A stretch of DNA of 64,000 nt from Clostridia bacterium (GTDB lineage: Bacteria > Bacillota > Clostridia > Oscillospirales > CAG-272): assembly GCA_017450965.1 (NCBI GenBank), contig JAFSSQ010000010.1:6424-70423 (forward strand), given 5' to 3'. The notes beneath the pieces were generated by a model, which was not told where the DNA came from, did no database searches, and worked only from the letters and a program-made list of their open reading frames with translations. Below, one piece after another: positions 22,403-50,474 of the stretch. Every line of letters begins with the position of its first letter. The first letter of the stretch is position 1. A program made the position numbers and the translations under genes.

Positions 22403-24046
22403 TCATTTGTTTAAGGTGATCTCAAGCAAAAAGGTATTGTAGCAAGGATCCCAGGTCGACATCACAAAGGCGATCTTCCGGCCGCCGTCCCGCGAGAGGG
22501 CGGGGCAGCTGAAGCCGCCGTACACGCCCGCCCCGACCGAGGGGAAGGTGATGTCGGCCGAGAGGGCGTAGGGCCCTTCCGGCTTTTTGGCGGTGTAGAG
22601 GTGGAAGACGTTGTCCTTTTTGAAGGAGACGATCCACTCGCCGAGGTACTCGTTATAGAAGATCGTGTTCTCCGATACGCGCGCGTCGATCAGCGGGAAC
22701 TCGCTCCGGATCCCCGCCTCGCCCGCCGTCCAGACGGCGCTGCCGTCCGCGTCGTAGCCGGTGAGGTACTCGTAGGCGGAGAGCGTTTCGATCTTGTCCG
22801 CGTCCACCCGCATCATCCGGGCAAAGCCGAGCCGCCCGCCGGTGATCCCGGTCAGGTAGACCTTGCCGTCCGCGGGGTTGTAGGCGGGCGAGATCTGGCA
22901 GAACTTCGTGTCTCCTTCCCAGCGGATCCCGTCGACGATCTGCCACGTCTTGCCGTCGTCAGCGGATTTGGCGAGCCCGCCGTAGTTGCAGTCCCAGCCG
23001 TTGTCGGTGCTCCACTCGCGCACCGACATAAAGTAGAAGTAGAGGTTATCGCCGAGGGAGATCGCGCCCGTCGGGATCTTCGAATACTCGGTTTTCGGCT
23101 TTTTCATCCCGGGGATCAGCTCGGTCGCAAAGTCGCCGGAGGAGGCGTACATCCCGTCGAAGACGATGCCGTTGGTGTAATCGAGGTCGGTCGTGTAGGC
23201 GGCGGTGTTGGTGCGCCAGCCGTCCTTGCGCTCCCCGCCGGAGAAGGTATCGCCGAAGAAGAACCAGAGCGTGTCCTTGTGCAGAACGGGGAAGCCGAGG
23301 TCAAGCCCGCACACGTTGTAGAGAGAATGGGTGCGGTTGACCGAATACTCGCCCGTCAGCATGGCGATCGTCCTCACGCCCGTCACGGCGCGGAGGGGGG
23401 AGGAGGCGTTCCCGGTCACGGCGGTCGAGATCACGGCGGTATGCAGCTTTTCCACGACCGCGGTCCCCTGCTTTTCGTAGTCGTTGTAGGAGGAGAAACG
23501 GCTGACCGAGAGGGTGCGGCTGAGGGAGAGCCCGTCCCCGTCCCGCTCGAGGCACCGGCCGACCAGCCAGTCGACCGCGTTCAGTACCTCCGCGTCGCTG
23601 CCGCCGAGCAGGTAGATCGCCGTGCGGCCGTCCGTTTCCTCGACGAAAACGGAAAACTCCGTTTCCCGCAGGCGGGTCTCGTTTTTCTCCTTGCGGGAGG
23701 AAAACCCGACGACGATCTCCGCCTCGCCCGGCTCCGGCGTTTCGCGGTCGGTCGAGGCGGCCAGCCGCACCCCGGTCGCGTCCCGGACGTACTCCCGCAG
23801 AGAGGAGACGGCCGCTTTGACGGAGGCGGAGGCGTTATCCGCCCGGATCAGGGTAAAGGCGGAGGCGCCGCCCGAAACGAGCCGGATCCGCCCGTCGGCG
23901 GGCGCGGCGGGAGCCGCCGTTTCGCTTTCCGCCGGAGCGGAGGTCTCACCGGTCGCCGCGGGGGCCTTGTCACAGGCAAGGAGAAAAAGAAAAGGGAAGA
24001 GGGAGATCAGAAAGAGGGAAAACAGTTTCACAGAAAAACGGTTCAT
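22403..24046 (-). CDS. Lipoprotein with N-terminal alpha/beta accessory domain and DUF4185 (GH183-like endo-D-arabinofuranase) domain
   Basis: Lipobox LLAC; GLDLG, FFGDTF, WRTN, IPTGAI, YFYFMSV, S-x-D-x-G-x-T-W box, VSE. Confidence 0.75.
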   Translation of the reverse strand: MNRFSVKLFSLFLISLFPFLFLLACDKAPAATGETSAPAESETAAPAAPADGRIRLVSGGASAFTLIRADNASASVKAAVSSLREYVRDATGVRLAASTDRETPEPGEAEIVVGFSSRKEKNETRLRETEFSVFVEETDGRTAIYLLGGSDAEVLNAVDWLVGRCLERDGDGLSLSRTLSVSRFSSYNDYEKQGTAVVEKLHTAVISTAVTGNASSPLRAVTGVRTIAMLTGEYSVNRTHSLYNVCGLDLGFPVLHKDTLWFFFGDTFSGGERKDGWRTNTAAYTTDLDYTNGIVFDGMYASSGDFATELIPGMKKPKTEYSKIPTGAISLGDNLYFYFMSVREWSTDNGWDCNYGGLAKSADDGKTWQIVDGIRWEGDTKFCQISPAYNPADGKVYLTGITGGRLGFARMMRVDADKIETLSAYEYLTGYDADGSAVWTAGEAGIRSEFPLIDARVSENTIFYNEYLGEWIVSFKKDNVFHLYTAKKPEGPYALSADITFPSVGAGVYGGFSCPALSRDGGRKIAFVMSTWDPCYNTFLLEITLNK

Positions 24047-24146: not shown

Positions 24147-25490
24147 TCAGTTTTCGTTTGCGGAGCGGCAGCGGAAGAAGAGGATCGCAGAGGCAACGCA
24201 CCCGCAGAGAGAAACGATCAGGAGGATAATGGCGTAGACGGGAACAGAGGAGGAGCCGGAGCCGCTGCTCGCGGGGGTCGTTTCCGCGGCGGTCTCGGCG
24301 GGCGCCTTGGTCTCGGCGGCCTGCGTTTCGGCGGGCTTGGTCTCGACGGTCGCCTGGGTCTCCGCCGCGTCCGTTTCACCGGGCGCTGCGGTCTCGGGGG
24401 CGGCCGTTTCGGGCGCTTCGGTCTCGACCGGGACCTTCGACGCGTCGTAGAGGACCTGGTCAAAGCCGGTCGCTTTCGTCAGGAGGTCGGCGTTGGGCGT
24501 CTCCCAGGCGGAGGCGTCCAGGGTAATCCCCTGCGAGAACTTTTCGTGCTCGCCGACGTCGCCGGTGACGATCATTCCCTTTTTCGCGAAGGTGCCGCCG
24601 TTGATCTTCAGGACGGCGGTCCCTTTGATGCTGCCGGAGCCGGCAACGGCGCCGGTGATTTCCGTCGTGTCGATGAAGTCGCCGCCGTTGATGACGACGG
24701 TGGCGTTGCCTTCGACCGTCCCGGTGCCGAGGACGCGGATCGACTTTTTGAAGGTACCGCCGTTGATGGTCAGCAGGACGTCGCCCTTGATCGTGCCGTC
24801 GCCCGCGGCAAAGACTTCCGCGTTGATCTCGCCGCCGTTGATGGTAACGGAAACGCTTCCTTCATTGACGCAGTTGAGCTTCTGGTTGTTCCGGGTGCCG
24901 CCGCGGATCATCTGCCAGGAGCCGCCGTTGATGGTCAGATCGCCGCCGTGCGCGGCGTCCTGCGCGGCGTCGTCGTTACGGCCGGCGGTGATGCCGATGT
25001 AGTTGGAGCTGCCGTCTTTGACGCACTCCACGTCCTCGCCGATCACGACCTTGTTGCCGTTGCAGCAGTAGAGCGAGGTGCTCTTCTGGACGCGGATCTT
25101 CAGATGGTCGAGCGTGTGCGCGCTGTTGAAGTAGAGCCACATATCGGAGAGCAGCGCGGCTTCCGCCGTCGTACGGTAGTCGGTCCCGTTCCAGACGCTG
25201 GTCAGCGTATAGGCGCCCGTGGCGGTTTCCGGCGTGCGGTAGTCGGAGCCGTCGGCGGAGCGGGAGAGGGTCAGCGGTCCGCAGATCACGATCATGCCGC
25301 CGTTCGGCAGCGCGGCGTAAGCGGCGTTCAGAGAGGCCTTCGCCTTCTCGGGGGAGGAGCCGTCGGAGAGGTCGCTTCCGTTATCGCTGATAAAGCAGAC
25401 GTCATCCGCCGCCGCCGCGGGCGCGGCGGCGAGGGGGACGAGGAGCGTCAGGACAAGGAGAAGAGAGAGAAGATAACAAATCTTTTTCAT
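24147..25490 (-). CDS. Secreted, C-terminally anchored surface protein with a probable beta-solenoid domain
   Basis: Signal peptide; FISDNGSDLSDGSSPEKA start motif; repeated (L/V)xINGG units; PETAAP linker; C-terminal TM plus basic tail; AAAGGAG RBS. Confidence 0.7.
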   Translation of the reverse strand: MKKICYLLSLLLVLTLLVPLAAAPAAAADDVCFISDNGSDLSDGSSPEKAKASLNAAYAALPNGGMIVICGPLTLSRSADGSDYRTPETATGAYTLTSVWNGTDYRTTAEAALLSDMWLYFNSAHTLDHLKIRVQKSTSLYCCNGNKVVIGEDVECVKDGSSNYIGITAGRNDDAAQDAAHGGDLTINGGSWQMIRGGTRNNQKLNCVNEGSVSVTINGGEINAEVFAAGDGTIKGDVLLTINGGTFKKSIRVLGTGTVEGNATVVINGGDFIDTTEITGAVAGSGSIKGTAVLKINGGTFAKKGMIVTGDVGEHEKFSQGITLDASAWETPNADLLTKATGFDQVLYDASKVPVETEAPETAAPETAAPGETDAAETQATVETKPAETQAAETKAPAETAAETTPASSGSGSSSVPVYAIILLIVSLCGCVASAILFFRCRSANEN

Positions 25491-31772: not shown

Positions 31773-32486
31773 ATGGAAATTTACGGTGCCGGTTCTCTCG
31801 AGGACGTGCGGATTTGCACGGAGCTCGGCGTCACGGGGATCCTCACGAATCCCCAGGGCTTTGAGCAGTATTATCAGGGCAAGATGACGCTCCGCGAGAT
31901 CACCGAAGCTCTCCTCAAAGCGAGCGACGACGGCCGCGACATCCCGGTCTTCATCCAGGTCCACGGACGTGACGCGGAGGAGATCGCCCACCGCGTGGAG
32001 GAGCTGCACGAGCTCAACCCCCGCCGCGTCTGCGGCAAGATCATCGCGGACGAAAAGGGCTTCCGCGCGATCAAAAAACTGCACGACGAAGGCATCCGCT
32101 GCGTCGCGACCTGCCTCTTCTCGCTCTCTCAGGCGGCGGTCGCCGCGATGGTCGGCGCTTACGCGATCTGCCCGTTCGTCTCCCGCGCGACCGCGATGGA
32201 GATGGATATGTTCGGCATCATCCGCAGCATCAAAGAGTGCTACCGTGACACGCCGAACGCGCCCCGCATCCTCGCCGCCAGCATCAAGAGCACCGCGGAC
32301 GTCAACGGCGCTTACGCCGCCGGTACGGACGCCGTCGCGCTCCGCTATCCGATGCTCCAGCAGATGATGGACCACGTCCTCACCACCCGCGCGGAAGCGC
32401 TCTTCGCCAAGAACTGGGCGAACGTCAAGGGCGAGGACATGAGCTACATGAAGGAAAAGATCAAACTCGAAGGCATCGCGGAATAA
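31773..32486 (+). CDS. Fructose-6-phosphate aldolase/transaldolase family protein, atypical active site
   Basis: TNP, FIQV, Schiff-base K (VCGKII), T-x-LFS, PFVSR, LAASIK. Confidence 0.8.
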   Translation: MEIYGAGSLEDVRICTELGVTGILTNPQGFEQYYQGKMTLREITEALLKASDDGRDIPVFIQVHGRDAEEIAHRVEELHELNPRRVCGKIIADEKGFRAIKKLHDEGIRCVATCLFSLSQAAVAAMVGAYAICPFVSRATAMEMDMFGIIRSIKECYRDTPNAPRILAASIKSTADVNGAYAAGTDAVALRYPMLQQMMDHVLTTRAEALFAKNWANVKGEDMSYMKEKIKLEGIAE

Positions 32487-34403: not shown

Positions 34404-34411
34404 TTTTTCAT

Positions 34412-36565: not shown

Positions 36566-38205
36566 TACTTGTCTTCCTCCAGACGCTTTTTCCAATCAGC
36601 GTCACTTTCAAGAACCTTTTGAGTTCCTTCAAAGTTCCGACAAATCCACTCGATCTTTTCTTTCAACGTGCTGAATTTCTCTTGACCGTACAACGTTTCA
36701 TCAATCACGTCAAAAGCCGTCTGCCCCGGAACACTTTCAAAATTAGCAACCTCCGCAATCTCATACACGTCAAGACTGCCGCCTAAAGGTTCATTGTCAT
36801 TAGCCCATTTGAAGTCGGTTGATCCGTCATAACAACTGCCAGTCATTGTTCTTTTTAACCTTTTTGAAGTAACATCATAGGCAATGCCGTGTGGATTTAC
36901 AGGTGTTTTTTCGTTTATTTGGCAGAGAACAAATCGTCTCTTTCCGTCATCTTGTTTATTCAATTCAAGAACCGCTTGACCTGTAGTTCCGCTTCCTGCA
37001 AAAAAGTCTAAAACCGTTGCTTCCTTTTTCCAATAAGTAGTCGATTTTAATAAGAGCTGGACAAGACCGACAGGCTTTGGATTGTCAAATGTATCGTCCA
37101 AAATCTCTTCTAATTGTGCGGTGCCATCTTCGTTTGTTTCACAGTTATAAAATACTTGAGATAGCATATTCCCCATTTTTTTGATTTCGCCGCCATCCTT
37201 TACAAGGTTGGGTCTAAATGGCACTTGGCTAATCGTAATAATGCTTCCTTTTGAGATCTCGTCATCAAGCGTTTCTTGACTATATCTCCATTCGCCTTCA
37301 AGCACCATCTCATTTATGTTTGTTCCATCCTCAATTACAACATCATTTAGTAGTCTTGTAATGATATTCCCGTTTGACATATCTTGTGCCTTGACTGTGC
37401 CATCAGGCATATTGAACCTAACGCGATTGGGTGGGAAATGCAATTTCCCCATAGTGTTTCCTGCGTTATTGAAAGGGTATTTTTTTCCAACAGTTGTTGT
37501 TTCAACAGAAAACGGAAAAGTTTCTTGATAATTAGCCACATAGCAAAGAATGTACTCGAACATTGTCCCAAAGTTCTTTGACAAGAATGACGGTTTTTTC
37601 TTTTTTTGCCAAATAATTGTTCCCGAGTAGTTTCTCTCTTGAAACACTTCATCCATTAGGCATTTTACATACGCATAATTACGATCATCAATACTACAAA
37701 ATATCACACCTGTTTCAGATAACAACATCTTCGCAAGTGTCAATCTGGAATAAAGCATGGACAATAAATTATCACGTGTCAATGCATTCTCATAATTTGT
37801 CTGAGCAAATTCGCCCATGCTGTCTTTCCCATACGGTGGATCAATATAAATAACATCAATTTTGCCCTTGTACTGAATAAGCAAATTGAGCAAACCGTCG
37901 TAATTATCGCCAATAATCAATTTGTTCGGCGACTTATCCGACCCATCTGAAAAACTCAATTCTTCGTTTTTCTTGAAATACTTTATAGCGGGCTCGGTTT
38001 TTTCAAGGCGTTTATCAAAATGGAATCCCGTCCTCTTATAAGTTGTACCGAGTTCGGCAATAAAAATTGCTTCCGTCAGCGTGTCGGCGTTTTGAATAAG
38101 CTTTTTAAGAAGATCAGCGTTGCTCTTTTCGATAATACCGTCTTCCATACGGCGATCCAGTTCGTTTATCAGTTCCTGCCGGCTTTGTTCAAAAACTGTT
38201 TTCAT
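36565..38205 (-). CDS. mod: Type III DNA methyltransferase subunit
   Basis: IYIDPPY and VLDFFAGSGTTG in beta-class order. ATG 38205 with GGAG RBS. Confidence 0.92.
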   Translation of the reverse strand: MKTVFEQSRQELINELDRRMEDGIIEKSNADLLKKLIQNADTLTEAIFIAELGTTYKRTGFHFDKRLEKTEPAIKYFKKNEELSFSDGSDKSPNKLIIGDNYDGLLNLLIQYKGKIDVIYIDPPYGKDSMGEFAQTNYENALTRDNLLSMLYSRLTLAKMLLSETGVIFCSIDDRNYAYVKCLMDEVFQERNYSGTIIWQKKKKPSFLSKNFGTMFEYILCYVANYQETFPFSVETTTVGKKYPFNNAGNTMGKLHFPPNRVRFNMPDGTVKAQDMSNGNIITRLLNDVVIEDGTNINEMVLEGEWRYSQETLDDEISKGSIITISQVPFRPNLVKDGGEIKKMGNMLSQVFYNCETNEDGTAQLEEILDDTFDNPKPVGLVQLLLKSTTYWKKEATVLDFFAGSGTTGQAVLELNKQDDGKRRFVLCQINEKTPVNPHGIAYDVTSKRLKRTMTGSCYDGSTDFKWANDNEPLGGSLDVYEIAEVANFESVPGQTAFDVIDETLYGQEKFSTLKEKIEWICRNFEGTQKVLESDADWKKRLEEDK

Positions 38206-38305
38206 TTTTATTATCTCCAATTCTTACTATTCGTTCAGTATTTGAGTATTTCAACGGATAGAACAAGTTTCATTTTGCAGAGAGCGGCGAGGACAACGCG
38301 GTAAA

Positions 38306-38841: not shown

Positions 38842-38877
38842 AAAAAATCTCCCTCCCGCCGGATCGGCGGGAGGGAG
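38842..38877 (-). terminator. Intrinsic terminator after the GRE activase
   Basis: 12-bp stem ctccctcccgcc/ggcgggagggag followed by atttttt on the minus strand. Confidence 0.8.
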
Positions 38878-38885: not shown

Positions 38886-39794
38886 TTACCGGAACCGTAC
38901 CGGTTTGTCGGTTTGCTTTTTGAGCGCCTCGAGGAAGGCGAGGTTTTCCTCGCGGGAGGCGAGGGGGGTATCGGCGAGGGCGTAGGGCCTGCCGAGCTCG
39001 CGGTATTTGCCGACGCCGAGCCGGTGATAGGGGAGCAGCTCCACGGCGGCGACGGGGAGGGGGGCGAGGAGGGCCGCCAGGTCCGCTGCAAACGCCCCGG
39101 TCATATTGACGCCGGGGATGAGGGGGACGCGGACGACCGTCTCGGTGAGCTTTGCCGCCGTCCGGAGATTTTCGAGGATCGGCTTGTTGCTTTGTCCGGT
39201 ATAACGGATATGTTCGGCCTCGTCGAGAAGCTTCACGTCAAAGTAGACGCGGTCGACCATGCCGGCGATCCGGGCAAAAACGGCGGGATCCGCGAAGCCG
39301 CAGGTTTCGATCATCACGTTGATCTTTTCCCGTTTGAGGCGTTCGATCAGCGCGAGAACGAAGTCCGCCTGGGCGGTTACCTCGCCGCCGGAGAGGGTGA
39401 CCCCGCCGCGAGAGTCCTCGTAGTAGTCCCGGTCCTTCAGTATGAGCTCGGTCAGCTCGTCGACGGTGTAGGGCTTGCCCGCCTCCCGGATCCGGTCAAA
39501 CGGGCATAGCGTTTCGCACCTTCCGCAAAAAACGCACTTGTCCGGGTCGGCCGACACGCCCTGTTCCGAAAGGGAGAGCGCGCCCTGCGGGCAGGCGGAA
39601 AGGCATTTTCGGCAGTCGGCGCACGCGCCGGCGGGCTTGATCATCAGCTCGGAGGAAAAACTCTGCGACTCGGGGTTGCAGCACCACGCGCAACGCATCG
39701 GACAACCCTTGAAAAAGACGGTCGTCCGGATGCCGTCCCCGTCGAACAGGCAGAAACGCTGAACGTCGAAGATCAGAGCAGTCGTTTTCACCAT
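38886..39794 (-). CDS. Glycyl-radical enzyme activating enzyme (radical SAM, with 2x[4Fe-4S] insert)
   Basis: DGDGIRTTVFFKGCPMRCAWCCNPES, CxxCxxCxxxCP twice, GVTLSGGE, LLPYH. Confidence 0.95.
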   Translation of the reverse strand: MVKTTALIFDVQRFCLFDGDGIRTTVFFKGCPMRCAWCCNPESQSFSSELMIKPAGACADCRKCLSACPQGALSLSEQGVSADPDKCVFCGRCETLCPFDRIREAGKPYTVDELTELILKDRDYYEDSRGGVTLSGGEVTAQADFVLALIERLKREKINVMIETCGFADPAVFARIAGMVDRVYFDVKLLDEAEHIRYTGQSNKPILENLRTAAKLTETVVRVPLIPGVNMTGAFAADLAALLAPLPVAAVELLPYHRLGVGKYRELGRPYALADTPLASREENLAFLEALKKQTDKPVRFR

Positions 39795-42130
39795 TTTTTA
39801 CCGCCCGATTCCTGGCAGGTCCTGCGGATGATGTCGTCCTGAAGCGCCCGCTCGATCGTGGTGAAGAGAACGGAGAAGCCCGCCACCCGGACCATCAGCG
39901 TGGGGTATTTTTCCGGGTGGATCTGCGCGTCGCGCAGGACCGCCTCGTCGAAGACGTTGAACTGGATATGCTGTCCGCCGTGCTTGAAGTAGGTCCGGAC
40001 GAGGTCGGCGATCTTCTCCTTGTTTTCGTCGGTGAGGAAGTTGGGGGTCAGCCGGAGATTGAGAAGACTGGAGCCGAGGACCTTCGTCGGGGTGAGTTTG
40101 ACCACCGAGTTGAGCAGCGCCGTCGCGCCGAGCTGATCCCTGCCGTGTCCCGCGGAAACGCCGCCGTCGGCGAGGTTGTCGAACGCCTTTCTCCCGTCCG
40201 GCGTCGCGCCCGTGTACTTGGCAAAGAGGACGTTCGAGGCGATGGTATAAAGCGCCAGGCGGTACTTGCCGCCGCGGGGAGAGGTGTACTTTTCCACCTC
40301 GCCGTAGAGGAAGTCGACAAGGTCCCGGCCGATCAGATCGACCGAATCGTCGTCGTTGCCGTACTTCGGCGATTTGTTTTTCAGCAGCGAGCGGAGATCC
40401 TCGCGGCCCTCAAAGTTGGAGAGGAGCGCGTCCTTCAGCTCGGAGAAGGAGACCGTTTTTTCGTCGTAGACGAACTTTTTCATCGCGCGGAGACTGTCGA
40501 TCACGTTGGGAACGGCAACCATCTGCAGGGTGGTCGAGTTGTACTTGGCGCCGCCCTCGAGATTTGTTTTGCCCGCGTCGAGACAGCCGCGGATAAAGGC
40601 GGAGACGAACGGCGTGGGGCAGAGCGAGCCGTGCAGCTCGTCGAGGACGTCGTCGCCCTTGATATTGAGCATCAGATAGTGGGCGAGCTGCGTCTTGAAG
40701 GCGGCGTAAAACGCCTCCCACGTCATCGTTTCCGCGTCTCCGGTGCGGAAGGGGAACTGCCGCTTGGCGACGGGATCGTACCCGTCGAAGAGCGTCAGCT
40801 CCAGCACCTTCGCCACGTTGAGGAAGCCCCCGGTGAGCCAGGGCTCCACGTTCCCGTTCCCCGTCGTCTCGGAGCAGCCGACGATGGTGTAGTCGTTCGC
40901 TTCCTTTTCGTCGTAGCCCATCGTCCGCATATTGGCGATGAGCGTTTTGTCGTTGAACATGGCGGGCATCCCGCCGCCGATGCGGACGGTGTCGAGAGCC
41001 GCGAGCAAAAACCGCTTGCTCGATTTTTCCTCGTTCCAGCGGATGGAGAGGGAGGGCTGGGGCAGAGCGATCTGCCGCGTCGCCGCGAGACAGAGGTAGG
41101 AGAGCTCGTTTTCCGCCGGGTTTCCGTCTTCGTCGATCCCGCCGACGATCAGGTTCTGGAACATGGGGTATCCGCCGAAGGCGATCGTGGAGACCTTATC
41201 CCGGATCTTGTTCAGCTCAAAGAACTTCAGCCACAAGAAGTGCAGCGTTTCCTCCAGCTCCTCGACCGGCACCCCTCTCTCGAGGTCGTGCTTGAAGTAG
41301 GGGAGCATATACTGGTCGAAGCGCCCGGGGGACATACTGTGGCCGCTCGCCTCGAGATGGAGCGCGAGATGCACGAGCCAGAAGGACTGCACCGCCTCGG
41401 CAAACGTTTCAGCGGGGCGGGCGGGGACTTTATGGAGGATGCGGGCGATCTCGGAGAGCTCCGCTTTCCTTTCTTCGTTTTCCTCCGTTTCCGCTTTTTC
41501 CCGCGCCAGCGCGGCGTAGCGCTCCGCGTAGGCGCAGATCGCCCGGAGAGAGATCTCGACCGCGTCGTAGTAGGCGGCGTGCTCTTCGGTGCGTTTTTCT
41601 TTTACTTCCTCCAGGATCCCGAGGATCCCCCGTTCGAGGAAGGAGCGGTAGTCGATCACGAGGTGCCCGATCCCGGAGCGCATCGCCGTGAGGATATACA
41701 CCAGCGAGGAGGCCGCGTCCTTCTGCTCGTCGGAGAGACGGAGGAAGGCGCGGTAGGCGATCGTTTTATCCTGCCAGTAGGGATAGATCGCGCGCAGCCG
41801 GGCTTTCGTCTCCTCGGAGATGAGGAAACGGTCGGTATTCCGGTCCGCGAGTCCGTCCATCTCGTTGATCACGAAGGTCATATCGTATTCGGGGTAGACG
41901 GGGCATCCCCTCGCCTTGCCGCAGAGCGAGCCGACGACCCGCTCAAGATCCCCGATGTGGATATCGGTCTTCCCGAGGATCTCGCGGAAGGCGACAGCGC
42001 GCCGAAGGACAGAGGGCATGCCCTCTGTCCTTTGGTAGCTTTCGGTGATGATCTCCGCCCGGTCCGCAAAGACCTCGGGCGGGAAGGAGCAGATAAAGTC
42101 CTTCAGTTTCCGGATCCGTTCTGTCATCAT
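39788..42130 (-). CDS. Glycyl radical enzyme, glycerol/diol-dehydratase-like clade, substrate unknown
   Basis: Gly loop RVAGFS, single-Cys loop GCSE, GIGH, ESGHS-like EASGHS, FGGYPMFQN, GATPDGR. Confidence 0.93.
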   Translation of the reverse strand: MMTERIRKLKDFICSFPPEVFADRAEIITESYQRTEGMPSVLRRAVAFREILGKTDIHIGDLERVVGSLCGKARGCPVYPEYDMTFVINEMDGLADRNTDRFLISEETKARLRAIYPYWQDKTIAYRAFLRLSDEQKDAASSLVYILTAMRSGIGHLVIDYRSFLERGILGILEEVKEKRTEEHAAYYDAVEISLRAICAYAERYAALAREKAETEENEERKAELSEIARILHKVPARPAETFAEAVQSFWLVHLALHLEASGHSMSPGRFDQYMLPYFKHDLERGVPVEELEETLHFLWLKFFELNKIRDKVSTIAFGGYPMFQNLIVGGIDEDGNPAENELSYLCLAATRQIALPQPSLSIRWNEEKSSKRFLLAALDTVRIGGGMPAMFNDKTLIANMRTMGYDEKEANDYTIVGCSETTGNGNVEPWLTGGFLNVAKVLELTLFDGYDPVAKRQFPFRTGDAETMTWEAFYAAFKTQLAHYLMLNIKGDDVLDELHGSLCPTPFVSAFIRGCLDAGKTNLEGGAKYNSTTLQMVAVPNVIDSLRAMKKFVYDEKTVSFSELKDALLSNFEGREDLRSLLKNKSPKYGNDDDSVDLIGRDLVDFLYGEVEKYTSPRGGKYRLALYTIASNVLFAKYTGATPDGRKAFDNLADGGVSAGHGRDQLGATALLNSVVKLTPTKVLGSSLLNLRLTPNFLTDENKEKIADLVRTYFKHGGQHIQFNVFDEAVLRDAQIHPEKYPTLMVRVAGFSVLFTTIERALQDDIIRRTCQESGGKKW

Positions 42131-42160
42131 AATAGGTTCCGACCCTTCCGACGCGCAGGA

Positions 42161-43177
42161 TCAGGGGTTCTGCGCGGCTTTTTTCTTCTGCGCGAGCTCG
42201 TAGGCGACCTGGATGCAGATCTGCTCCTGCCCCTCGGTGCAGCCGCGGAGGCCGATCTCCTTGATGATGTCGCGGGTGTCGACGCCGAACTTCGCCGCCG
42301 CGCGCCGCGCAAAGAGGATAAAGCTGGAGTAGACGCCGTAGCCGAGCATGATCTGGTCGCTCGTCAGCTCCATCGGGCGCGGCATCAGCGGTTTGAGGTA
42401 CTCGTCGCCCACGTCCATCGCCTTGTACATATCCACATTGGTGCGGTAGCCCTTGCGGTCCAGCGCGAGCAGCAGCGGCTCGACGGGGCAGTTGCCCGCG
42501 CCGGCGCCGAAGCCCTTGATGCAGGTGTCCACGTAGGTCGCGCCCGCGTCGATCGCCGCGAGGGTGTTGGCGACGGCAAGCTGCATATTGTTGTGCGCGT
42601 GGAAGCCGAGCGGAACGTCGATGTGCTTCTGGAGGGTGAAGATGCGCTCGTAGACTTCCTCCGGCAGGGCGGATCCGCCGCCGTCGAGGAGGTAGATCAC
42701 CTCGGCGCCGAATTTCTCGGAGATCTGGGCGTAGCGGAGCGTCTCCTCCACCGAGAGGAACTTGGCGAGCGGGAGGACCGCCCACGGGATCAGGCCCATC
42801 TCTTTCGCCATGCCGATATGCTGACGCGCGATGTCGCACTCGGACATCTGGGTGGCGAACCGGGCGACGGTGATGCCGTTTTCCTTCGCCATCTTCAGAT
42901 CGTACCGCGTCCCGATACCGGGGAGGGTGATGATCGCGAGCTTCGCGTTTTTCACCTTCGGGCGGACGGCTTTCATATACTCCTCGTCCGTCGCGGCGCC
43001 GAATCCGTACTGGATGGAGGAACCGCCGACGCCGTTTCCGTGGCCGAATTCGATGAAGTCGACGCCGGTGCTGTCGATCTGTTCCGCGAGCATCGCCATC
43101 TGCTCCGTCGTGTACTTGTGGCTCATCGCGTGCGAGCCGTCGCGGAGCGTGGAATCGAGAATGTTGATCCGTTTCAT
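42161..43177 (-). CDS. mhpE: 4-hydroxy-2-oxovalerate aldolase-like (DmpG/MhpE, DRE-TIM)
   Basis: LRDGSH, HGNGVGGSS, GFHAHNN, GFGAGAGN, GVYSSF. ATG 43177 with GGAGG RBS. Confidence 0.9.
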   Translation of the reverse strand: MKRINILDSTLRDGSHAMSHKYTTEQMAMLAEQIDSTGVDFIEFGHGNGVGGSSIQYGFGAATDEEYMKAVRPKVKNAKLAIITLPGIGTRYDLKMAKENGITVARFATQMSECDIARQHIGMAKEMGLIPWAVLPLAKFLSVEETLRYAQISEKFGAEVIYLLDGGGSALPEEVYERIFTLQKHIDVPLGFHAHNNMQLAVANTLAAIDAGATYVDTCIKGFGAGAGNCPVEPLLLALDRKGYRTNVDMYKAMDVGDEYLKPLMPRPMELTSDQIMLGYGVYSSFILFARRAAAKFGVDTRDIIKEIGLRGCTEGQEQICIQVAYELAQKKKAAQNP

Positions 43178-43179
43178 AA

Positions 43180-44061
43180 TCAGTGATTGCCTCCTTGTTT
43201 CAAGAGATGTTCGGCGATCCCTTCGCCGACCGCCAGCGCAGCGCTCGTCTCGATATCGAGATTGCCGCTGTATTTGGGGAGATAGTCGCCCGCGCCCTCG
43301 ATCTCGACCATGGTCGTGACCTGGTTGCCGTCGATCGTCGGCGGGAGCTTGAGGGAGTAACCGGGAACGTACTGCCGGACCCGTTCCACCATCCGGTTGA
43401 CCGCGTCGTTGATCTTCACCGGGTCGGGATCTTCCACGAGGCAGTAGATGGTGTTGCTCATCATGATGGGGGGCTTGGAGGGGTTGAGGAGAATGATCGC
43501 CTTGGATTTTTCCGCGCGGCCGACCACCCTCAGCGCCCGCGCCGTCGTGATGGTGAACTCGTCGATGCTGTCGCGGGTGCCGGGGCCGGCGCTGTCGCGC
43601 GCGATGCACGCCACGATCTCCGCGTAGTTGACCTTCGTCACCTCGCTGAGGGCGTACACGATCGGGATCGTCGCCTGTCCGCCGCAGGTGATCAGGTTGA
43701 GGTTCGGCTCGTTCTTGTACCCTTCCAGGTTGACGGGAGGGCAAACGTAGGGACCGATCGCGGCGGGGGTGAGGTCGACCGCGATCTTGCCGGCCGCCTT
43801 CAGGAGCGGCGCGTGCACCATGTGCGCGCTGGCGAGGGTGGCGTCGAAGACGATCTTGATGTCGTCATGCTCGAGGAGCCCTTCGATCCCGCGGTCGGTG
43901 GTCGGCACGCCGGCCGCCGCGGCGACGGGAAGGTGTTTCGAGGTGTCGTTGCCCACCATCAGCTTGAGCTCCATATACTTCGAGCGCTTGAGGATCTTGT
44001 ACATCAGGTCAAGCCCGATGTTGCCGGGACCGATGATTGCGACGGGGATTTTCTTTTCCAT
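43180..44061 (-). CDS. mhpF: Acylating acetaldehyde dehydrogenase (DmpF/MhpF)
   Basis: [44 protein letters not shown]. Confidence 0.93.
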
Positions 44062-44124: not shown

Positions 44125-45009
44125 TCAGGGGGTCTGTTTGCCGCGCAGCTCCCGGAGGTAAGCGGAGGGACTCTGCCCGCACTGCATCTTGAAGAAACGG
44201 CTGAAGGAATAGATATCGGGGAACCCGAGCAGATCTCCCACCCGGGAGGGGGAAAGTCCCTCCTCCAGCTTCTTTTTGGCGTATTCGGAGCGCAGGGAAT
44301 TGCAGTATTTGATCAGCGAAACGCCGTAGGTGGAGCGGAACTTTTTGACCAGATAGAACTTGTTGTAGTGGAACTGCTCCGAGAGGTCGTCCAGATTGAA
44401 GCGGGAGTTGAGGAAGTTTGCGTCGATAAAACTCTTGACGCTGCTGATGAAGTCCGGCTCCTCGTGCGCGAAGCTGCGCAGCTCGGAGATGTTGTCGCGG
44501 ATGATCATGCGCAGAAGCGCCGTCATCTGCTCCTTGCAGATCAGCTGATAGAGGACCGGCTTGTTGTGATAGGTGCGGATCACGTCCTCCACCAGAGAGA
44601 GGAAGACCTTGCGGTTGCTGACGTTGAGGAAGGGGTATTCCAGCTCCCCGCCGAAAAAGTCCGGCTGGACGCAGCGCCGCTCCTCCTCGGTGAAATCGGC
44701 GAGGTTTTTGTAAGAGACGTAGGAAAGCTCGCTGGAGGGCGTGTAGGTCACGTCGAAATGGATATGCGCGTGGAGCGGAGAGGAGTCCGGCGGAACGACG
44801 ATCGTGTGGTTGACGCCGGGCGGGATCAGGATGATATCGCCCTGCTTCGTTTCGTAGGTCTTTTCGTTCATCAAAAGAGTAAAGCCGCTGGAGATGAACC
44901 AGATCAGCTCGTAGTCAAAGAGCGCCCGCTCCTTGAAGACAAGTCCGGGACGGAGGGTCGAGGTGAGCGCGGCCCGGACGTAAGGGGAAACGGCGTTGAC
45001 GTTCAGCAT
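44125..45009 (-). CDS. AraC/XylS family transcriptional regulator
   Basis: N-terminal cupin (YELIW, GDIILIPPG); C-terminal double HTH ending GFPDIYSFSRFFKMQCGQSPSAY. Confidence 0.93.
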   Translation of the reverse strand: MLNVNAVSPYVRAALTSTLRPGLVFKERALFDYELIWFISSGFTLLMNEKTYETKQGDIILIPPGVNHTIVVPPDSSPLHAHIHFDVTYTPSSELSYVSYKNLADFTEEERRCVQPDFFGGELEYPFLNVSNRKVFLSLVEDVIRTYHNKPVLYQLICKEQMTALLRMIIRDNISELRSFAHEEPDFISSVKSFIDANFLNSRFNLDDLSEQFHYNKFYLVKKFRSTYGVSLIKYCNSLRSEYAKKKLEEGLSPSRVGDLLGFPDIYSFSRFFKMQCGQSPSAYLRELRGKQTP

Positions 45010-45036: not shown

Positions 45037-47718
45037 TCATTTTTTTGAAACTTCGATCTCCCACACAAACGACTGATAGAGGGTCGCCCGGGAGGTGATG
45101 ACCATCATGTAGCGGCCGCCCTCCCGCGTGTAAACGGAGGAGACGCGCGGCTCGTAGACCGCGCCCATCACGCCGCCCTGCTTGATGATCAGGACCGGAT
45201 CCGACCAGACGCCGTCCAGGGTCTTGGCCGTCCGCATCACGATACTGTTTTTCAGGTCGCCCGCGTAGGCGGTGCAGTAGAGGATGACCCACTCGCCGAG
45301 GTATTCGTTATACATCACGCCGACGCCGCCGACCGCGGCTTCGACCGCCGCGTAGTTGCTCATCATCGCGTCGTACCCGCGCTCGAAGATCCCGTTGCCG
45401 TTTTCGTCCCGCCCGGTCATGTACTCGTAGGCGGAGAAATCCTCGATCTGAGACGCCTTTACGCGCATGATGCGGCAGGCGCCCTTGCGCCCGCCGGGAA
45501 CGCCGAAGACGTAGACCCACTCCCCGTCAAGGACGGGATAGAGCTGGGCAAGCCCGTAGAGGGGGACCTGCGCCACGGGATCGGAAACGTCCGTTCCCGC
45601 CGGCCAGCGCAGATCGGAGGAGATCTCCCAGCTGCGGCCCATATCGGTCGACTTGGCGAGCGCGCCGTAGTTGCAGGGCCAGCAGCCGTTGCGGCCCGTG
45701 GTGCCCCACGCGTTGACCGACATATAGTAGAAATAGAGGGTATCGCCGATCTTCAGCCCGCCCGTCGGGATCTTCGACTCCTCCGTTCCCTTTTTGTGCA
45801 GGGAGGGGAGGAACTCTCCGGCAAAGGGCTTGCTCTGGTAGCTGTCGCCCATGTAAAAGCCGTCGATCCGGATCCCGTCGGTGTAGTCAAAGTCGCTGGT
45901 AAAGGCAAGACTGTTCGCGCGCCAGGTCTTGCCGAGGCCGTCTTCGGAGTTGCTGTCCCCGAACGCCAGCAAAACCGAGTCGCCGCAGTCGATCATATAG
46001 CCGCCGCCCACGCGCGCGATATCGTAGTTCGAGAGGGTGCGGTTGTCTGAGTATTCCCCGGTAAGGAGGGAAACGAAGCGCAGACTTTCGACCCGGTAGA
46101 GGGAATAGGCGGGGTCGTCCAGGGTGCGCGATTTTTCGCTGTAAAGACCGGCGAGCTGCGCCGGGCTGTTTTCCCGCTTTTTCTGCTCGGCGATCAGGGC
46201 GTCGACGTCCGCGATGCGGGTCTTCGCGTCGGGGCCGAGCGCGTCTTTCTCCGCGTCGGTCAGCGGCGTCGTCGCGGAAAGCGTAACGGAGGGCGGATCG
46301 GTATAGCGGATCCCGTTTGCGGTGAGGGCGGGCGCCCGTACGGCAAGGCAGGAGGCGTCGTTTTTCTCGGTGACGGTAAAGGCGCTGCCCGTGAGGGATA
46401 CGGCGCTTCCGAGGAGGAGACGGGCGCCGGGGTTGCCCTTGGCGACGGTCCCGGCGGGGAAGCTCCCGCCCGTGACGCAGAGGACCGTCTTCGCGTAGGT
46501 GGAAACGGTGATCGCGTCGGAGGTTACCTGGCGGACGGCCAGATCCTTTGAGAGGAAGGTGCCGCCGGTGATCTTGAGCGTGACGCTGCCGGTGACCGCG
46601 ACGGGATTGCGGTTCGGGTTGCTCTCGGTGCGGGAGAGGAGGTAGACCGGACCATCAAAGGTCCCGCCGCTGATCTCCATATAGACCGTGCCGGCGACGC
46701 TGTTCATCCCGGAGGCGGAGTTGAAATCCTGTCCCGAGGAGGCAATAAAACGTCCGCCCTTGACATAAACGCAGAAGGAGACGCCCTCGTCGACCGTGCC
46801 GAACGCGGACTTCGCGTCCATCCGGCTGTTGCCGCCGCGCAGATACTGCCAGGTCCCGGATTTCACCGTAACGGCGGCGTCCTTGTGGCAGCCGATCTGG
46901 TAGGCGTTCATATGGAGCGAGGAGGGGGCGTTGTAGCCGCCGAGCAGCGCGATATAAGTCGAAACGCCGCTCGCCCGGGAACACTCAACGTCCGCGCCGA
47001 CCGTAACGTTGTTGTACTGGAAACAGAAGAAGAGGTTGTTCTTTTCGGCGGAGACGGCCAGTCCCTCGAGAAGATAGTCGCCGTAGAAGTTCGCGTCGGC
47101 GGAGAAGGAGAGCTTCGCGCCGCTTGTCTTCCGGTAGTCGATCCCGTCCCGGACCGAGGTCAGGGTAACGGTCGCTTCGTTGGAGGGAAAGTAGTAGGTC
47201 TCGGGGAAGGTAAGCGGGCCGCAGACGACGACCGTGCCGCCCGTTTTTTTGGTTTTGCCGAGGCCGTCGGCAAGGGCGGCGGCGTTCTCGGGCGAGGAGC
47301 CGTCCTTTTTCCCGGCGCCTTTCTCTGTGACGAAGACGACCGGCGCGGCGGGATCCCCGCCCTGCAGCCCTTCGGGCGCTTCGGTCTCCGGCGCCGCCGT
47401 TTCGGGCGCCGCGGTCTCCGCCGATCCGCCCTGAGGGGGGGCGGTCTCCGGCGTTTCGGTCTCTGCGGGCTCCGTTTCCCGGCCGGCCGTCTCCGGCGCG
47501 GCGGTTTCCGTCTCACCGGTCTTTTTCGTTTCCGGCGCGGCGGTCTGCGGGACCTCCGTTTGTTCGGCGGTCCCGGCGGGCAGAGGCGCTTTTCCCGTTT
47601 CCGCCGTTTCTGACGAGACGGGGGAGGACGGCGCGGCGGGCGCGCAGCCGATCGGCAGAAGGGAGCAGAGCAGGACCAAAGCAAGCAAAGAGTGTCCGGT
47701 GCGACTCGTTCGTTTCAC
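45037..47718 (-). CDS. Lipoprotein: beta-solenoid-like domain + DUF4185/GH183-like domain lacking predicted catalytic residues
   Basis: Lipobox PIGC, ETAAP linker, DGSSPENA domain; FGD, WRAN, IPTGG, YYMSV, STDMGRSW. GxDLG replaced by RVGGG and VSE by VGG. Confidence 0.72.
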   Translation of the reverse strand: MKRTSRTGHSLLALVLLCSLLPIGCAPAAPSSPVSSETAETGKAPLPAGTAEQTEVPQTAAPETKKTGETETAAPETAGRETEPAETETPETAPPQGGSAETAAPETAAPETEAPEGLQGGDPAAPVVFVTEKGAGKKDGSSPENAAALADGLGKTKKTGGTVVVCGPLTFPETYYFPSNEATVTLTSVRDGIDYRKTSGAKLSFSADANFYGDYLLEGLAVSAEKNNLFFCFQYNNVTVGADVECSRASGVSTYIALLGGYNAPSSLHMNAYQIGCHKDAAVTVKSGTWQYLRGGNSRMDAKSAFGTVDEGVSFCVYVKGGRFIASSGQDFNSASGMNSVAGTVYMEISGGTFDGPVYLLSRTESNPNRNPVAVTGSVTLKITGGTFLSKDLAVRQVTSDAITVSTYAKTVLCVTGGSFPAGTVAKGNPGARLLLGSAVSLTGSAFTVTEKNDASCLAVRAPALTANGIRYTDPPSVTLSATTPLTDAEKDALGPDAKTRIADVDALIAEQKKRENSPAQLAGLYSEKSRTLDDPAYSLYRVESLRFVSLLTGEYSDNRTLSNYDIARVGGGYMIDCGDSVLLAFGDSNSEDGLGKTWRANSLAFTSDFDYTDGIRIDGFYMGDSYQSKPFAGEFLPSLHKKGTEESKIPTGGLKIGDTLYFYYMSVNAWGTTGRNGCWPCNYGALAKSTDMGRSWEISSDLRWPAGTDVSDPVAQVPLYGLAQLYPVLDGEWVYVFGVPGGRKGACRIMRVKASQIEDFSAYEYMTGRDENGNGIFERGYDAMMSNYAAVEAAVGGVGVMYNEYLGEWVILYCTAYAGDLKNSIVMRTAKTLDGVWSDPVLIIKQGGVMGAVYEPRVSSVYTREGGRYMMVITSRATLYQSFVWEIEVSKK

Positions 47719-47763
47719 GGCGTTCTCCTTTTCAATCCGGATCGGGAAATGCGTTATCCGTTT

Positions 47764-50205
47764 TCAGCCTTTTTTGGAGAGTTCGATTTCCCAGATGATG
47801 GAATTGTAGATATCCCAGCGCGAGGTGATGAGCATCATATAGCGCCCGCCCTCCCGCGTGTAAGCGGAACAGACGCGCGGCTCGTAGACGGCGCCGAAGG
47901 TCGCCTGCGACATAACGAGGACCGCCTCGGACCACTTGCCGTCAAGGGTCTTCGCGGCGCGCATCACGATGCTGTTTTTCAGGCTGCCCGTCTCCGGCGT
48001 GCAGTAGAACATCAGCCATTCGCCGAGGTATTCGTTGTACATCACGCCGACGCCGCCGACGCACTTGTCCACCGCGGCGCAGTTGGTCATCATCGCCTTC
48101 TCGCCGCGCTCGAAGATCGCGTTGCCGTTTTCGTCCCGCCCGGTCATATACTCGTAGGCGGTGAAGTTTTCGATCTGGGACTGTTTCACGCGCATCAGAC
48201 GGCAGTAGCCCCTGCGTCCGCCCGGTACGCCGAAGAAGTAGACGAAATCTCCGCTGAGGACGGGATAGAGCTGCGCAAAGCCCCATTCCGGGATCTCCTC
48301 GACGGGGTCGTCGACGTCGGTCCCCGCCGGCCAGCGCAGGTCGGAGGGCGTTTCCCAGCTGCGGCCGAAGTCGGTCGACTTGGCGATCCCGCCGTAGTTG
48401 CAGGGCCAGCAGCCGTTCCGGTCGGTCTCCCGCCAGCTCGCGACGGACATATAGCAGAAGTAGAGGGTATCGCCGATCTTTATCCCGCCCGTCGGGATCT
48501 TCGACTCTTCGGTCTTGTTCTTCGTGTCGTGCCCCGAAAGGAGGAACTCGCCGGAGAACGGCGCGCTCTGATAGGTATCGCCCATATAGAAGCCGTCCAG
48601 CGTGATCCCGTCGGTGTAGTCCCGATCGGTCGTGAAGGCGAGGGCGTTCGCGCGCCACGGTTTGCCGAGCTCGCCCTCGGGGTTGCAGTCGCCGAACGCG
48701 AGGAGGGTCGTATCGCCGCAATCGATCATATAGCCGCCGCCCGCGCCCGCGATATCGTAGTTGGTGATCGTTTTATTGATCGAATACTCGCCCGTCAGCA
48801 TCGAAACGAACTTCACGCTGCGCAGCGCGTCGAGGGAGTAGAGTTTATCGGGGTCGCGCAGACGCATCGAGGACGCCGGCGTGTTCTGTTCCAGCTTCCG
48901 GACCTTCGCCAGCGCGGCGGCGGTCTCGGAGATCAGGCTCTTTTCCTCTTCCGCGGTGAGGGGGCCGGTTTTCGGCTTCGTCTCGGGGAAGGGAGGCTCG
49001 GTGTAGGAAGGGGCGTTCGCCTTCAGGGTCGGCGCGGCGATCTGATCGGCGCTGCCGGAGAGGGTCTTTGTAAAGGACTTCGCGGTCACGCCCACGCCGT
49101 CGCTGAGGAGGACGCTGCTGCCCGATTCGCCCGTGGCGACCGTTCCCGCCGGGAAGGCGCCGCCGGAGACGCAGAGAACCGTTTCCGCGTGAGAGGAGAG
49201 GGCGGTCTTGTCGGAGGTGGTCTGGCGGACGGCCAGCTCCTTCGAGCGGAAGGTGCCGCCGGTGATCTTCAGCGTGACGCTGCCGGTAACGGACACGGGA
49301 TAGAGCTCCGTGTTGCTCCCGGTGCGGGAGAGGAGATAGACCGGGCCCTCAAAGGTCCCGCCGCTGATCTCCATATAGACCGTACCGGCGACGCTGTTCA
49401 TGCCGGAGGCGGAGTTGAGATCCCGTCCCGAGGCGGCGGAAAAGCTCCCGCCCTGCACGAAGATCGCAAAGGTGACGCCCTCGTCCACGGTGCCGAAGGT
49501 GGACTTCGCCTGGGTGCGGCGGTTGCCGCCGCGCAGGTACTGCCAGGAGCCGCCCTTCACCGTGACGGCGGCGTCCGCATGGCAGCTGACCTGTTCGACG
49601 TTGCGGTAGGCGCTGGAGGGGACGTTGTAGCCGCAGATCAGCGCGATGTCGGTCGAAACGCCGGACGCGCGGGTGCACTCTACGTCCGCGCCGAAGGTCA
49701 CGTTGTTGTACTGGAGGCAGAAGAGCAGGTCGGCTTTCTCGGCGGAGATCGTCAGGCCGTCAAAGAGATAGTCGCCGTAAAAGAAGGCGTTCGAGGAGAA
49801 GGCGAGCTTCGCGCCCGCCGCCGTCCGGTAGTCGACGCCCTCCCAGACGGAGGTCAGGGTAACGGAGGCGCCGTTGGAGGGGAAGAAATAATCTTCGTCA
49901 AAGGAAAGCGGCCCGCAGACGACGACGGTGCCGCCCGCTTTTTTGGTTTTGCCGAGGCCGTCGGCGAGGGTGGCGGCGTTCTCGGGCGAGGTGCCGTCCT
50001 TTTCGCCGGCGCCGTCCTGCGTCACGAAGACGGTCGCCGCTTCCGCGGCAAAATCGTCCTCGGGAAGGGCGGTGGTGCTGTCCTCCGGCGGGACGGACGG
50101 CTTATCGCAGGAGCCGAGCGCCGCGGCGCAGAAAAGGAGCGAAAGGATCATCGAAAGGATCCGGAAAAGCGGAGACGTGCGGGAGGCGTTTTTTGGTTGC
50201 TTCAT
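47764..50205 (-). CDS. Tandem paralog: lipoprotein with beta-solenoid-like + DUF4185/GH183-like domains lacking predicted catalytic residues
   Basis: Lipobox LGSC; colinear with 45037-47718; GAGGG and VGG at the catalytic positions. ATG 50205 with GGAG RBS. Confidence 0.72.
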   Translation of the reverse strand: MKQPKNASRTSPLFRILSMILSLLFCAAALGSCDKPSVPPEDSTTALPEDDFAAEAATVFVTQDGAGEKDGTSPENAATLADGLGKTKKAGGTVVVCGPLSFDEDYFFPSNGASVTLTSVWEGVDYRTAAGAKLAFSSNAFFYGDYLFDGLTISAEKADLLFCLQYNNVTFGADVECTRASGVSTDIALICGYNVPSSAYRNVEQVSCHADAAVTVKGGSWQYLRGGNRRTQAKSTFGTVDEGVTFAIFVQGGSFSAASGRDLNSASGMNSVAGTVYMEISGGTFEGPVYLLSRTGSNTELYPVSVTGSVTLKITGGTFRSKELAVRQTTSDKTALSSHAETVLCVSGGAFPAGTVATGESGSSVLLSDGVGVTAKSFTKTLSGSADQIAAPTLKANAPSYTEPPFPETKPKTGPLTAEEEKSLISETAAALAKVRKLEQNTPASSMRLRDPDKLYSLDALRSVKFVSMLTGEYSINKTITNYDIAGAGGGYMIDCGDTTLLAFGDCNPEGELGKPWRANALAFTTDRDYTDGITLDGFYMGDTYQSAPFSGEFLLSGHDTKNKTEESKIPTGGIKIGDTLYFCYMSVASWRETDRNGCWPCNYGGIAKSTDFGRSWETPSDLRWPAGTDVDDPVEEIPEWGFAQLYPVLSGDFVYFFGVPGGRRGYCRLMRVKQSQIENFTAYEYMTGRDENGNAIFERGEKAMMTNCAAVDKCVGGVGVMYNEYLGEWLMFYCTPETGSLKNSIVMRAAKTLDGKWSEAVLVMSQATFGAVYEPRVCSAYTREGGRYMMLITSRWDIYNSIIWEIELSKKG

Positions 50206-50278: not shown

Positions 50279-50308
50279 ATTATATTTGAGGAGAACGGAA
50301 GTTGTCAA
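50279..50308 (-). promoter_or_regulatory. Consensus SigA promoter for the DUF4185-AraC-mhpFE-GRE run
   Basis: TTGACA-N18-TATAAT on the minus strand. Confidence 0.75.
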
Positions 50309-50445: not shown

Positions 50446-50474
50446 TTGACAAAAGAGGACGCGGGCGATATAAT
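50446..50474 (+). promoter_or_regulatory. Consensus SigA promoter for the partner-switching operon
   Basis: TTGACA-N17-TATAAT. Confidence 0.8.

Follow-up and report, generated by a model that had tools for sequence, protein, structure and literature searches.

Glycine at the predicted nucleophile position across a clade of GH183-like DUF4185 propellers from ruminant-gut Clostridia

Glycoside hydrolase family 183 (GH183) was defined in 2023 and, to our knowledge, every characterised member uses two aspartates. Here we describe two adjacent genes, ORF-A and ORF-B (ORF, open reading frame), whose products carry the DUF4185 domain of this family but have glycine where the first of these aspartates should be. 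They lie in a stretch of 64,000 nucleotides from a Clostridia bacterium (positions 6,424 to 70,423 of contig JAFSSQ010000010.1, assembly GCA_017450965.1), which we call the window. The closest described protein is EndoMA1, the GH183 endo-alpha-D-arabinanase of Microbacterium arabinogalactanolyticum (PDB 8HHV and 8IC1, the latter being the D51N mutant). In EndoMA1 the nucleophile is Asp33, found in a TDLG motif and 2.8 Å from C1, the acid/base is Asp51, found in FGD, and a third carboxylate, Glu243, keeps Arg198 in place to hold the sugars at -3 and -2; the mutants D33N, D51N, and E243A/Q are all nearly dead (PMC10509167). In DgGH4185b of Dysgonomonas gadei, D170A and D188A abolish activity and the E381A mutant is described as 'broadly' active (PMC10115798). 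An identical Asp/Asp pair occurs in the toxin EatA, where D206 is the nucleophile equivalent. DgGH4185a/b and the mycobacterial proteins Rv3707c/AraH and EatA belong to the same family and require both aspartates, whereas the proteins described here have only the second; those GH183 proteins come from Bacteroidota or Actinomycetota, whereas our host belongs to the ruminant-gut Clostridia. In the GH183 papers that we searched for catalytic residues, we saw no branch lacking the nucleophile.

ORF-B (positions 47764..50205 of the window, minus strand, 813 aa) and ORF-A (45037..47718, minus strand, 893 aa) are uninterrupted frames with 45 nt between them. As a comparator we used REF (22403..24046, minus strand), a canonical GH183 lipoprotein encoded in the same window, which aligns with EndoMA1 (8hhv) at E 1e-33 and keeps Asp249, Asp266, Glu460, and the sequence VYGGF. 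In three-way MAFFT alignments and in alignments based on hidden Markov models (HMMs), GLDLGF of REF stands opposite RVGGGY of ORF-A and GAGGGY of ORF-B, an Asp-to-Gly replacement, and RVSENT of REF stands opposite AVGGVG and CVGGVG, a Glu-to-Gly replacement. The motifs FGD, WRxN, IPTG, MSV, and YNEYLGEW are preserved in all three proteins in the MAFFT alignment. An earlier, sequence-only reading of the window had reported both replacements, the conservation of the surrounding motifs, and the integrity of both frames, and all of this holds. It had also stated that both catalytic carboxylates were gone, which is correct for the aspartate only. The missing aspartate aligns with EndoMA1 Asp33, DgGH4185b D170, and EatA D206 and is thus identified, by alignment, as the GH183 nucleophile, whereas the missing glutamate corresponds to the supporting third carboxylate; the predicted acid/base aspartate of FGD stays. 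In ORF-B, G489 of G489-G490-G491 (48733..48741) occupies the nucleophile position, the acid/base residue is kept in F504-G505-D506 (48688..48696), G718 (48052..48054) takes the position of Glu243, and Y774-E775-P776-R777 (47875..47886) stands in place of the canonical Y-G-G-[YF] at EndoMA1 positions 293-296. In ORF-A the same features are G571 of G571-G572-G573 (46000..46008), F586-G587-D588 (45955..45963), G798 (45325..45327), and Y855-E856-P857-R858 (45145..45156), all eight elements being on the minus strand. Since neither protein has the nucleophile aspartate, the retaining double displacement of GH183, with its glycosyl-enzyme intermediate, is excluded for both. Judged by these alignments, ORF-A and ORF-B belong to the DUF4185 sequence and fold family and yet are not GH183-type retaining enzymes.

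The C-terminal ~340 residues of both proteins match PF13810 (DUF4185) far above the gathering cut-off of 39.5 bits, with E 7e-53 and 180 bits for ORF-B and E 1e-50 and 173 bits for ORF-A; the match of REF has E 5e-62. The propeller of ORF-B (residues 461-813; 47767..48825, minus strand) matched 8hhv by phmmer at E 3e-21. The full-length AlphaFold2 (AF2) model of ORF-B has a mean predicted local distance difference test score (pLDDT) of 81.6 and a predicted template modelling score (pTM) of 0.82, and the motifs fall within beta-strands. When this model was searched with Foldseek, the best match was 8hhv (E 9e-23, 26% identity), with 8ic1 also at ~1e-22, and the next matches were other five-bladed propeller glycosidases of families GH117 and GH43. 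The model therefore has the five-bladed, EndoMA1-like fold, apparently intact. The C-terminal CBM-like (carbohydrate-binding module-like) domain of EndoMA1 is absent from both proteins, which instead have an N-terminal beta-helix and a predicted lipoprotein anchor. In ORF-B a lipobox (ALGSC, Cys33) is followed by the beta-helix module, a linker, and the propeller; in ORF-A a looser, lipoprotein-like signal (LPIGC, Cys25) precedes a Pro/Thr/Glu-rich linker, the beta-helix module, and the propeller. The lipobox motif alone places both proteins, putatively, at the cell surface. For ORF-A the start codon is GTG 47718, 7 nt downstream of an AAGGAG, and ORF-B most likely starts at ATG 50205, 11 nt downstream of another AAGGAG.

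The beta-helix module (residues 55-400 of ORF-B; 49006..50043, minus strand) is modelled by AF2 as a right-handed helix of ~340 residues with a mean pLDDT of 93.4. It has many invariant charged residues, and Foldseek against the PDB returned nothing significant for it, the best match being a PL9 pectate lyase at E 0.13. The module also occurs alone, with a C-terminal membrane anchor, in a protein adjoining REF (24147..25490, minus strand), and in other genomes it is fused to GH43 domains, to GDSL esterases, and to an S9-type esterase. NCBIfam has no family for ORF-A, ORF-B, REF, or this stand-alone beta-helix protein. Based on the model, this could be an accessory or binding module that has not been described before. 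The sequence-only reading had likened ORF-A and ORF-B to SusD; the analogy may hold for their role, but the modelled fold is a beta-helix plus propeller and not the all-helical tetratricopeptide-repeat fold of SusD.

The two proteins are not isolated oddities. A word-indexed search returned 38 relatives, every one from uncultured Clostridia, and an exhaustive search of 1.84 billion representatives returned 685 family clusters. We took a census of the residues at EndoMA1 positions 33, 51, and 243 in 188 aligned family sequences. The states were D/D/E in 127, G/D/G (hereafter the Gly type) in 36, D/D/N in six, and D/D/G in three; the rest were partial sequences, apart from one S/D/N. All 36 G/D/G sequences retain Asp51, Trp138, Arg198, and Tyr293, and in all 36 the canonical Y-G-G-[YF] has become Y-E-P-R. 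A position-by-position contrast gave the clade signature D33G, L34G, I36Y, E243G, G294E, and Y296R, the last with the caveat that pairwise phmmer makes R777 of ORF-B a one-residue insertion that does not lie opposite EndoMA1 Tyr296. Every sequence with glycine at 243 has glutamate at 294, so the glutamate, which had been described as simply replaced by glycine, is better described as relocated. The three D/D/G sequences keep Asp33 and have Gln36 and Y-E-P-S. Hence the loss of Glu243 accompanies the gain of Glu294, and the loss of Asp33 accompanies Gly34, Tyr36, and Arg296. That identical residue states recur in 36 independently assembled sequences rules out chance as well as an assembly or sequencing error.

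In a maximum-likelihood tree computed with the trait columns left out, the G/D/G and D/D/G sequences form one clade, with a Shimodaira-Hasegawa-like approximate likelihood ratio test (SH-aLRT) support of 100% and a stem of 0.82 substitutions per site; its nearest outgroups are REF-like canonical sequences. Within it, the D/D/G sequences are sister to a single G/D/G group (SH-aLRT 88%). The Gly type arose once. A GGG-type subfamily of DUF4185, the existence of which had been left to a search, is therefore found as a 36-member clade of single origin, and what had been seen as a pair of paralogs is part of it, with a third copy elsewhere in the same genome. Because the D/D/G sisters carry Glu243Gly and Glu294 yet retain Asp33, the order of events can be read from the sequences: the carboxylate would have been relocated first and the nucleophile lost second. 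These sisters (P0028, P0030, and P0035, all from metagenomes) share with the Gly type the beta-helix plus propeller, Glu243Gly, Gly294Glu (in YEP), and the habitat, but they keep the nucleophile aspartate in GGADIGQ and have serine at 296, and they may still be ordinary retaining enzymes. One D/D/G gene lies directly upstream of a Gly-type gene.

Glu294 is an unlikely new nucleophile, as it already stands alongside Asp33 in the D/D/G sister group, and it therefore tracks the loss of Glu243. The aspartates of YDIAG and MIDCG were also considered as substitutes and rejected, since EndoMA1 has aspartate at both positions (28 and 39) and since that of YDIAG varies inside the Gly-type clade. Glu775 and Arg777 of ORF-B adjoin the positions of Tyr293 and Leu292, both of them ligand contacts in 8IC1. 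From this adjacency, from strand register, and from the covariation of the two residues with positions 33-36 and 243, we infer that Glu775 and Arg777 lie at the floor of the -1 subsite.

Members of the Gly-type clade come from Clostridia and were found in metagenomes of bovine and sheep gut. In a sample of 301 genomes of the window's order, the Gly type (E <= 1e-40) was present in the window's own genus only, the remaining genomes with it being elsewhere among uncultured Clostridia. Most members of ~800 aa carry lipoboxes and those of ~1300 aa carry Sec signals. A subgroup (P0016-P0021; 725-738 aa; loci L010, L011, and L037) has no signal peptide and begins right at the beta-helix, and each of its genes comes 10-25 nt after one for a secreted DUF4185 protein. 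In one metagenomic protein of 2230 aa (P0040), a GDSL esterase (1224-1426) is fused to a Gly-type propeller (1868-2223).

Despite its rebuilt centre, the propeller is being maintained. The dN/dS ratio (non-synonymous to synonymous substitution rates) of the propeller is 0.29 among the three paralogs of the genome, and against orthologs in two related metagenome-assembled genomes (MAGs) it is 0.11-0.15 for ORF-B and 0.17-0.26 for ORF-A; for REF against its orthologs it is 0.065-0.15, and for the beta-helix module it is 0.30-0.51. The dN/dS comparison that had been put forward as a check on the pair thus gives purifying selection on the Gly-type propellers, close to that on the canonical enzyme. 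With intact frames and ratios of 0.11-0.29, we reject the idea that these are decaying pseudogenes. In a comparison with one distant genome, identity is 60-62% for the Gly-type propellers, 72% for REF, 65% for the cytoplasmic DUF4185 copy, and 66-67% for the iron-containing alcohol dehydrogenase (Fe-ADH) and PfkB proteins. Thus a whole GH183-derived branch has dropped the nucleophile, gained an invariant Glu/Arg pair, and stayed under selection.

Two broad roles had been offered for such proteins, a glycan binder and an enzyme with different chemistry, and these are the two that still stand. Loss of a catalytic carboxylate with selection on the fold and on the sugar-binding residues is known from the GH18 chitinase-like lectins and the defective GH32 invertases, which are mostly eukaryotic; in contrast to those, the loss in the present clade comes with an invariant compensating Glu and Arg. 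We know of no GH183 relative for which a bacterial surface-capture role has been shown. Given that the chain-holding residues and the hydrogen-bonding aspartate are kept, that Glu and Arg are typical sugar ligands, that the proteins have a predicted surface anchor, that relatives carry adhesion-type or esterase partners, and that each genome with them also encodes a canonical enzyme, we tentatively lean towards the Gly-type propeller being a non-cleaving capture module for a D-arabinan-like chain. ORF-A and ORF-B would be membrane-anchored surface lipoproteins combining a beta-helix accessory module with a GH183-derived five-bladed propeller, the active-site floor of which would have been rebuilt by the six signature changes. 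The parts that hold an alpha-D-arabinofuranan-type polymer, namely the aromatic clamp of Trp138 and Tyr293 together with Arg198, are kept, and the retained Asp51 would hydrogen-bond the glycosidic oxygen. The propeller would bind the polymer uncut and keep it at the cell surface for REF and the associated esterases, after which cytoplasmic GH183 (D/D/N), GH172, and DUF6259 enzymes and the products of the kinase, aldolase, and reductase genes would complete the breakdown. Expression would be controlled by the AraC regulator, whose gene directly follows ORF-A. The identity of the ligand, binding without cleavage, and co-transcription are each something we infer. Among the partners, the BspA-type leucine-rich repeats (LRRs) on the third paralog look like an adhesion-type domain, which would favour capture, and the esterase fusion of P0040 would fit a targeting role. 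The gene content of the loci, with GH172, DUF6259, PfkB, Fe-ADH, and FSA next to the conserved AraC gene, would likewise favour capture.

Several observations weigh against capture. No part of the protein is more strictly conserved than its former catalytic centre, in which GGG, FGD, and YEPR are invariant, and such invariance would suit a working catalytic site equally with a binding site. By analogy with the other genomes, in which the beta-helix is attached to catalytic domains, the propeller appears to occupy the 'catalytic' slot. The signal-less P0016-P0021 would be difficult to square with a role confined to capture at the surface. Finally, several genomes have 2-5 Gly-type copies for each copy of the canonical enzyme.

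The main alternative, possible if somewhat less likely, is that the propeller is a rewired glycosidase, either inverting or retaining without an enzymic nucleophile. Mechanism changes of this kind have precedents in GH97, where Gly/carboxylate swaps distinguish retaining from inverting enzymes, and in GH99, which works without an enzymic nucleophile; the folds of both differ from that of the window proteins. By an inverting route, a water molecule in the cavity left by Asp33Gly and Leu34Gly would be activated by Glu775 of ORF-B as the general base, tuned by Arg777, with Asp506 as the general acid. By a retaining route, of the type proposed for GH99, the trans 2-OH of the substrate would attack and the reaction would pass through a 1,2-anhydro intermediate. 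The invariance of the acid/base aspartate, the new Glu, and the new Arg in 36 of 36 sequences is what such an enzyme would need, and the strict retention of three glycines suggests a requirement for space. The path is also stepwise, the D/D/G sisters being nucleophilic with the carboxylate already moved from 243 to 294, and the constraint on the clade is about equal to that on the canonical enzyme. The catalytic partners of the beta-helix, the multi-copy and diversifying nature of the family, and the members without signal peptide all point the same way. However, the arginine gained beside the -1 subsite would place a positive charge at an oxocarbenium-like transition state, and loss of the nucleophile across a clade more often goes with non-catalytic relatives. 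The more general proposition that the whole Gly-type clade is an active GH183 branch, cleaving furanosidic glycans without an enzymic nucleophile by inversion or by neighbouring-group participation, strikes us as somewhat unlikely on present sequence evidence.

It is rather improbable that the propeller is only a scaffold, serving folding, oligomerisation, or docking and binding no glycan, with the beta-helix or a partner as the functional part. The beta-helix also exists alone on a membrane anchor beside REF and has its many invariant charged residues, and EndoMA1 is a dimer (PMC10509167), all of which would suit a scaffold. Yet the invariant residues of the propeller are the sugar-contacting ones, and its dN/dS lies below that of the beta-helix.

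Less probable still is a shift of specificity towards an anionic or acylated sugar, such as succinylated arabinan or an acidic furanoside, with a sialidase-like apparatus. In such an apparatus the new tyrosine of GGGY would be the nucleophile, Glu would activate it, Arg777 and Arg664 would bind the carboxylate, and Asp506 would be the acid/base. The clade has gained exactly Tyr36, Glu294, and Arg296 and has kept Arg198 and Asp51, and the loci repeatedly contain GDSL and other esterases, one of them fused to a clade member, as an acylated substrate would lead one to expect. However, by strand alternation Tyr36 should lie on the strand face of Leu34, opposite to Asp33, where it most likely refills the core space left by Leu34Gly, and the residue at 36 varies together with that at 296 (Ile pairs with Tyr/Phe, Gln with Ser, and Tyr with Arg) in a manner that resembles packing and not catalysis. 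As for phosphorolysis, with phosphate at the glycine-rich strand and the new Arg replacing the nucleophile, the Gly-Gly-Gly plus gained Arg does resemble an anion site and GH130 phosphorylases are marked by basic residues, but extracellular phosphorolysis makes little sense for ORF-A, ORF-B, and a membership that is mostly lipoproteins or Sec-secreted, and one active-site signature is shared by exported and signal-less members alike, so that we regard this as the most far-fetched of the explanations.

Should the Gly-type proteins be binders, they would be the first case of a D-arabinanase giving rise to glycan-capture proteins, and they would provide a ready probe that leaves D-arabinan-type glycans, the mycobacterial cell-wall polymer among them, uncut. 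Should they be enzymes, they would represent a natural mechanism switch in GH183, the stepwise path of which could be reconstructed from living D/D/G intermediates in the same habitat. Either way, they point to uncultured ruminant-gut Clostridia that would specialise on this class of glycan.

The genome that contains the window (2.07 Mb, 59.7% GC, 89 contigs) has five DUF4185 genes: REF (D/D/E), one D/D/N gene, and three of the Gly type. The third Gly-type paralog is a protein of 1491 aa on contig C19 (13640-14629; L004) with an additional N-terminal region, including BspA-type LRRs (Pfam LRR_5, E 2e-19), that precedes the beta-helix and the propeller. The D/D/N protein is cytoplasmic (406 aa; contig C30, 20722-21822; L005), keeps both aspartates, and has Asn for Glu243, in TSNMSV. 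The D/D/N type was seen in every related genome that we examined, and in two it makes up the majority. Five more genomes were examined, and all contain the Gly type together with D/D/E and D/D/N proteins. In G303-G305, 2-5 Gly-type proteins are accompanied by a single REF-like canonical lipoprotein and a single cytoplasmic D/D/N protein; in the two small genomes, G301 and G302, the Gly type accounts for 1-2 of the 16-20 matches to DUF4185. The G301 assembly (~1.2 Mb) has 20 such matches and the G302 assembly (~1.1 Mb) has 16 (loci L044-L071), a few of the matches being fragments of one gene. These numbers suggest an extreme specialisation on this glycan class in ruminant-gut Clostridia.

Upstream of ORF-B is a promoter-like TTGACA-18-TATAAT (50279..50308, minus strand), which agrees with the consensus at 12 of 12 positions. 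A second perfect sigma-70 consensus (12/12; 50446-50474, plus strand) diverges from it and precedes a gene of the SpoIIE/PP2C type. Downstream of ORF-A, 27 nt away, is a gene for an AraC-family regulator (44125..45009, minus strand; Pfam), followed, in this order, by genes for an acetylating acetaldehyde dehydrogenase, a 4-hydroxy-2-oxovalerate aldolase, a glycyl radical enzyme (GRE), and its activase (38886..44061, minus strand). A strong terminator-like hairpin of 13 pairs, 11 of them G-C, followed by a T-run, lies downstream of the activase gene (38849..38877, minus strand), and a minus-strand scan between 50279 and 38877 found no strong terminator. These signals fit a single predicted unit running from ORF-B through ORF-A, AraC, the dehydrogenase, the aldolase, and the GRE to the activase. 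The gene was found in DNA metagenomes of bovine and sheep gut only and in no RNA run. The sequence-only reading had placed the pair at the head of an AraC-mhpFE-GRE unit; the promoter and terminator scans agree with this, but only the pairing with AraC is kept outside the genus. The aldolase, dehydrogenase, and GRE genes accompany Gly-type genes in the window's genus only (L009, L012, and L014), whereas in several distant genomes (L015, L018/L037, L020, L024, and L038) a Gly-type gene is immediately followed by an AraC ortholog (60-62% identical).

The AraC-bearing Gly-type loci also hold DUF6259 and a partner of ~500 aa, PfkB, Fe-ADH, and FSA, a canonical DUF4185, GH172, and GDSL esterases. 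The same gene set is found at 20.7-32.5 kb of the window, contig C60 of the genome has two GH172 genes, and the loci of DgGH4185a/b, AraH, and EatA likewise combine GH183 and GH172 with sugar catabolic genes. In the window, the DUF6259 gene and that for a 504-aa protein (25523-29305) form a conserved pair that is also present in L015, L016, and L020, and elsewhere the pair stands head-to-head with Gly-type DUF4185 genes. The GRE matched the broad PFL2/glycerol-dehydratase subfamily model but none of the specific equivalogs. It is speculation on our part that the GRE, dehydrogenase, and aldolase, together with the FucO-like Fe-ADH and FSA (30506-32486), could convert glycolaldehyde or ethylene glycol from D-arabinose to acetyl-CoA.

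Between the activase and Fic genes (33639-38220) lies a type III restriction-modification system (Mod, 36565-38220; Res, 34412-36595) with an ORF of 254 aa. In a close relative (L009), Fic follows the activase after 175 bp, and the restriction-modification block looks like a recent insertion that split the glycan locus. Near the start of the window, a surface-polysaccharide synthesis cluster (826-16770) adjoins the glycan-degradation genes and includes genes for GT4 and GT2 proteins, a PIG-L deacetylase, an ATP-grasp protein, a Wzy-like protein, and a CDP-glycerol glycerophosphotransferase.

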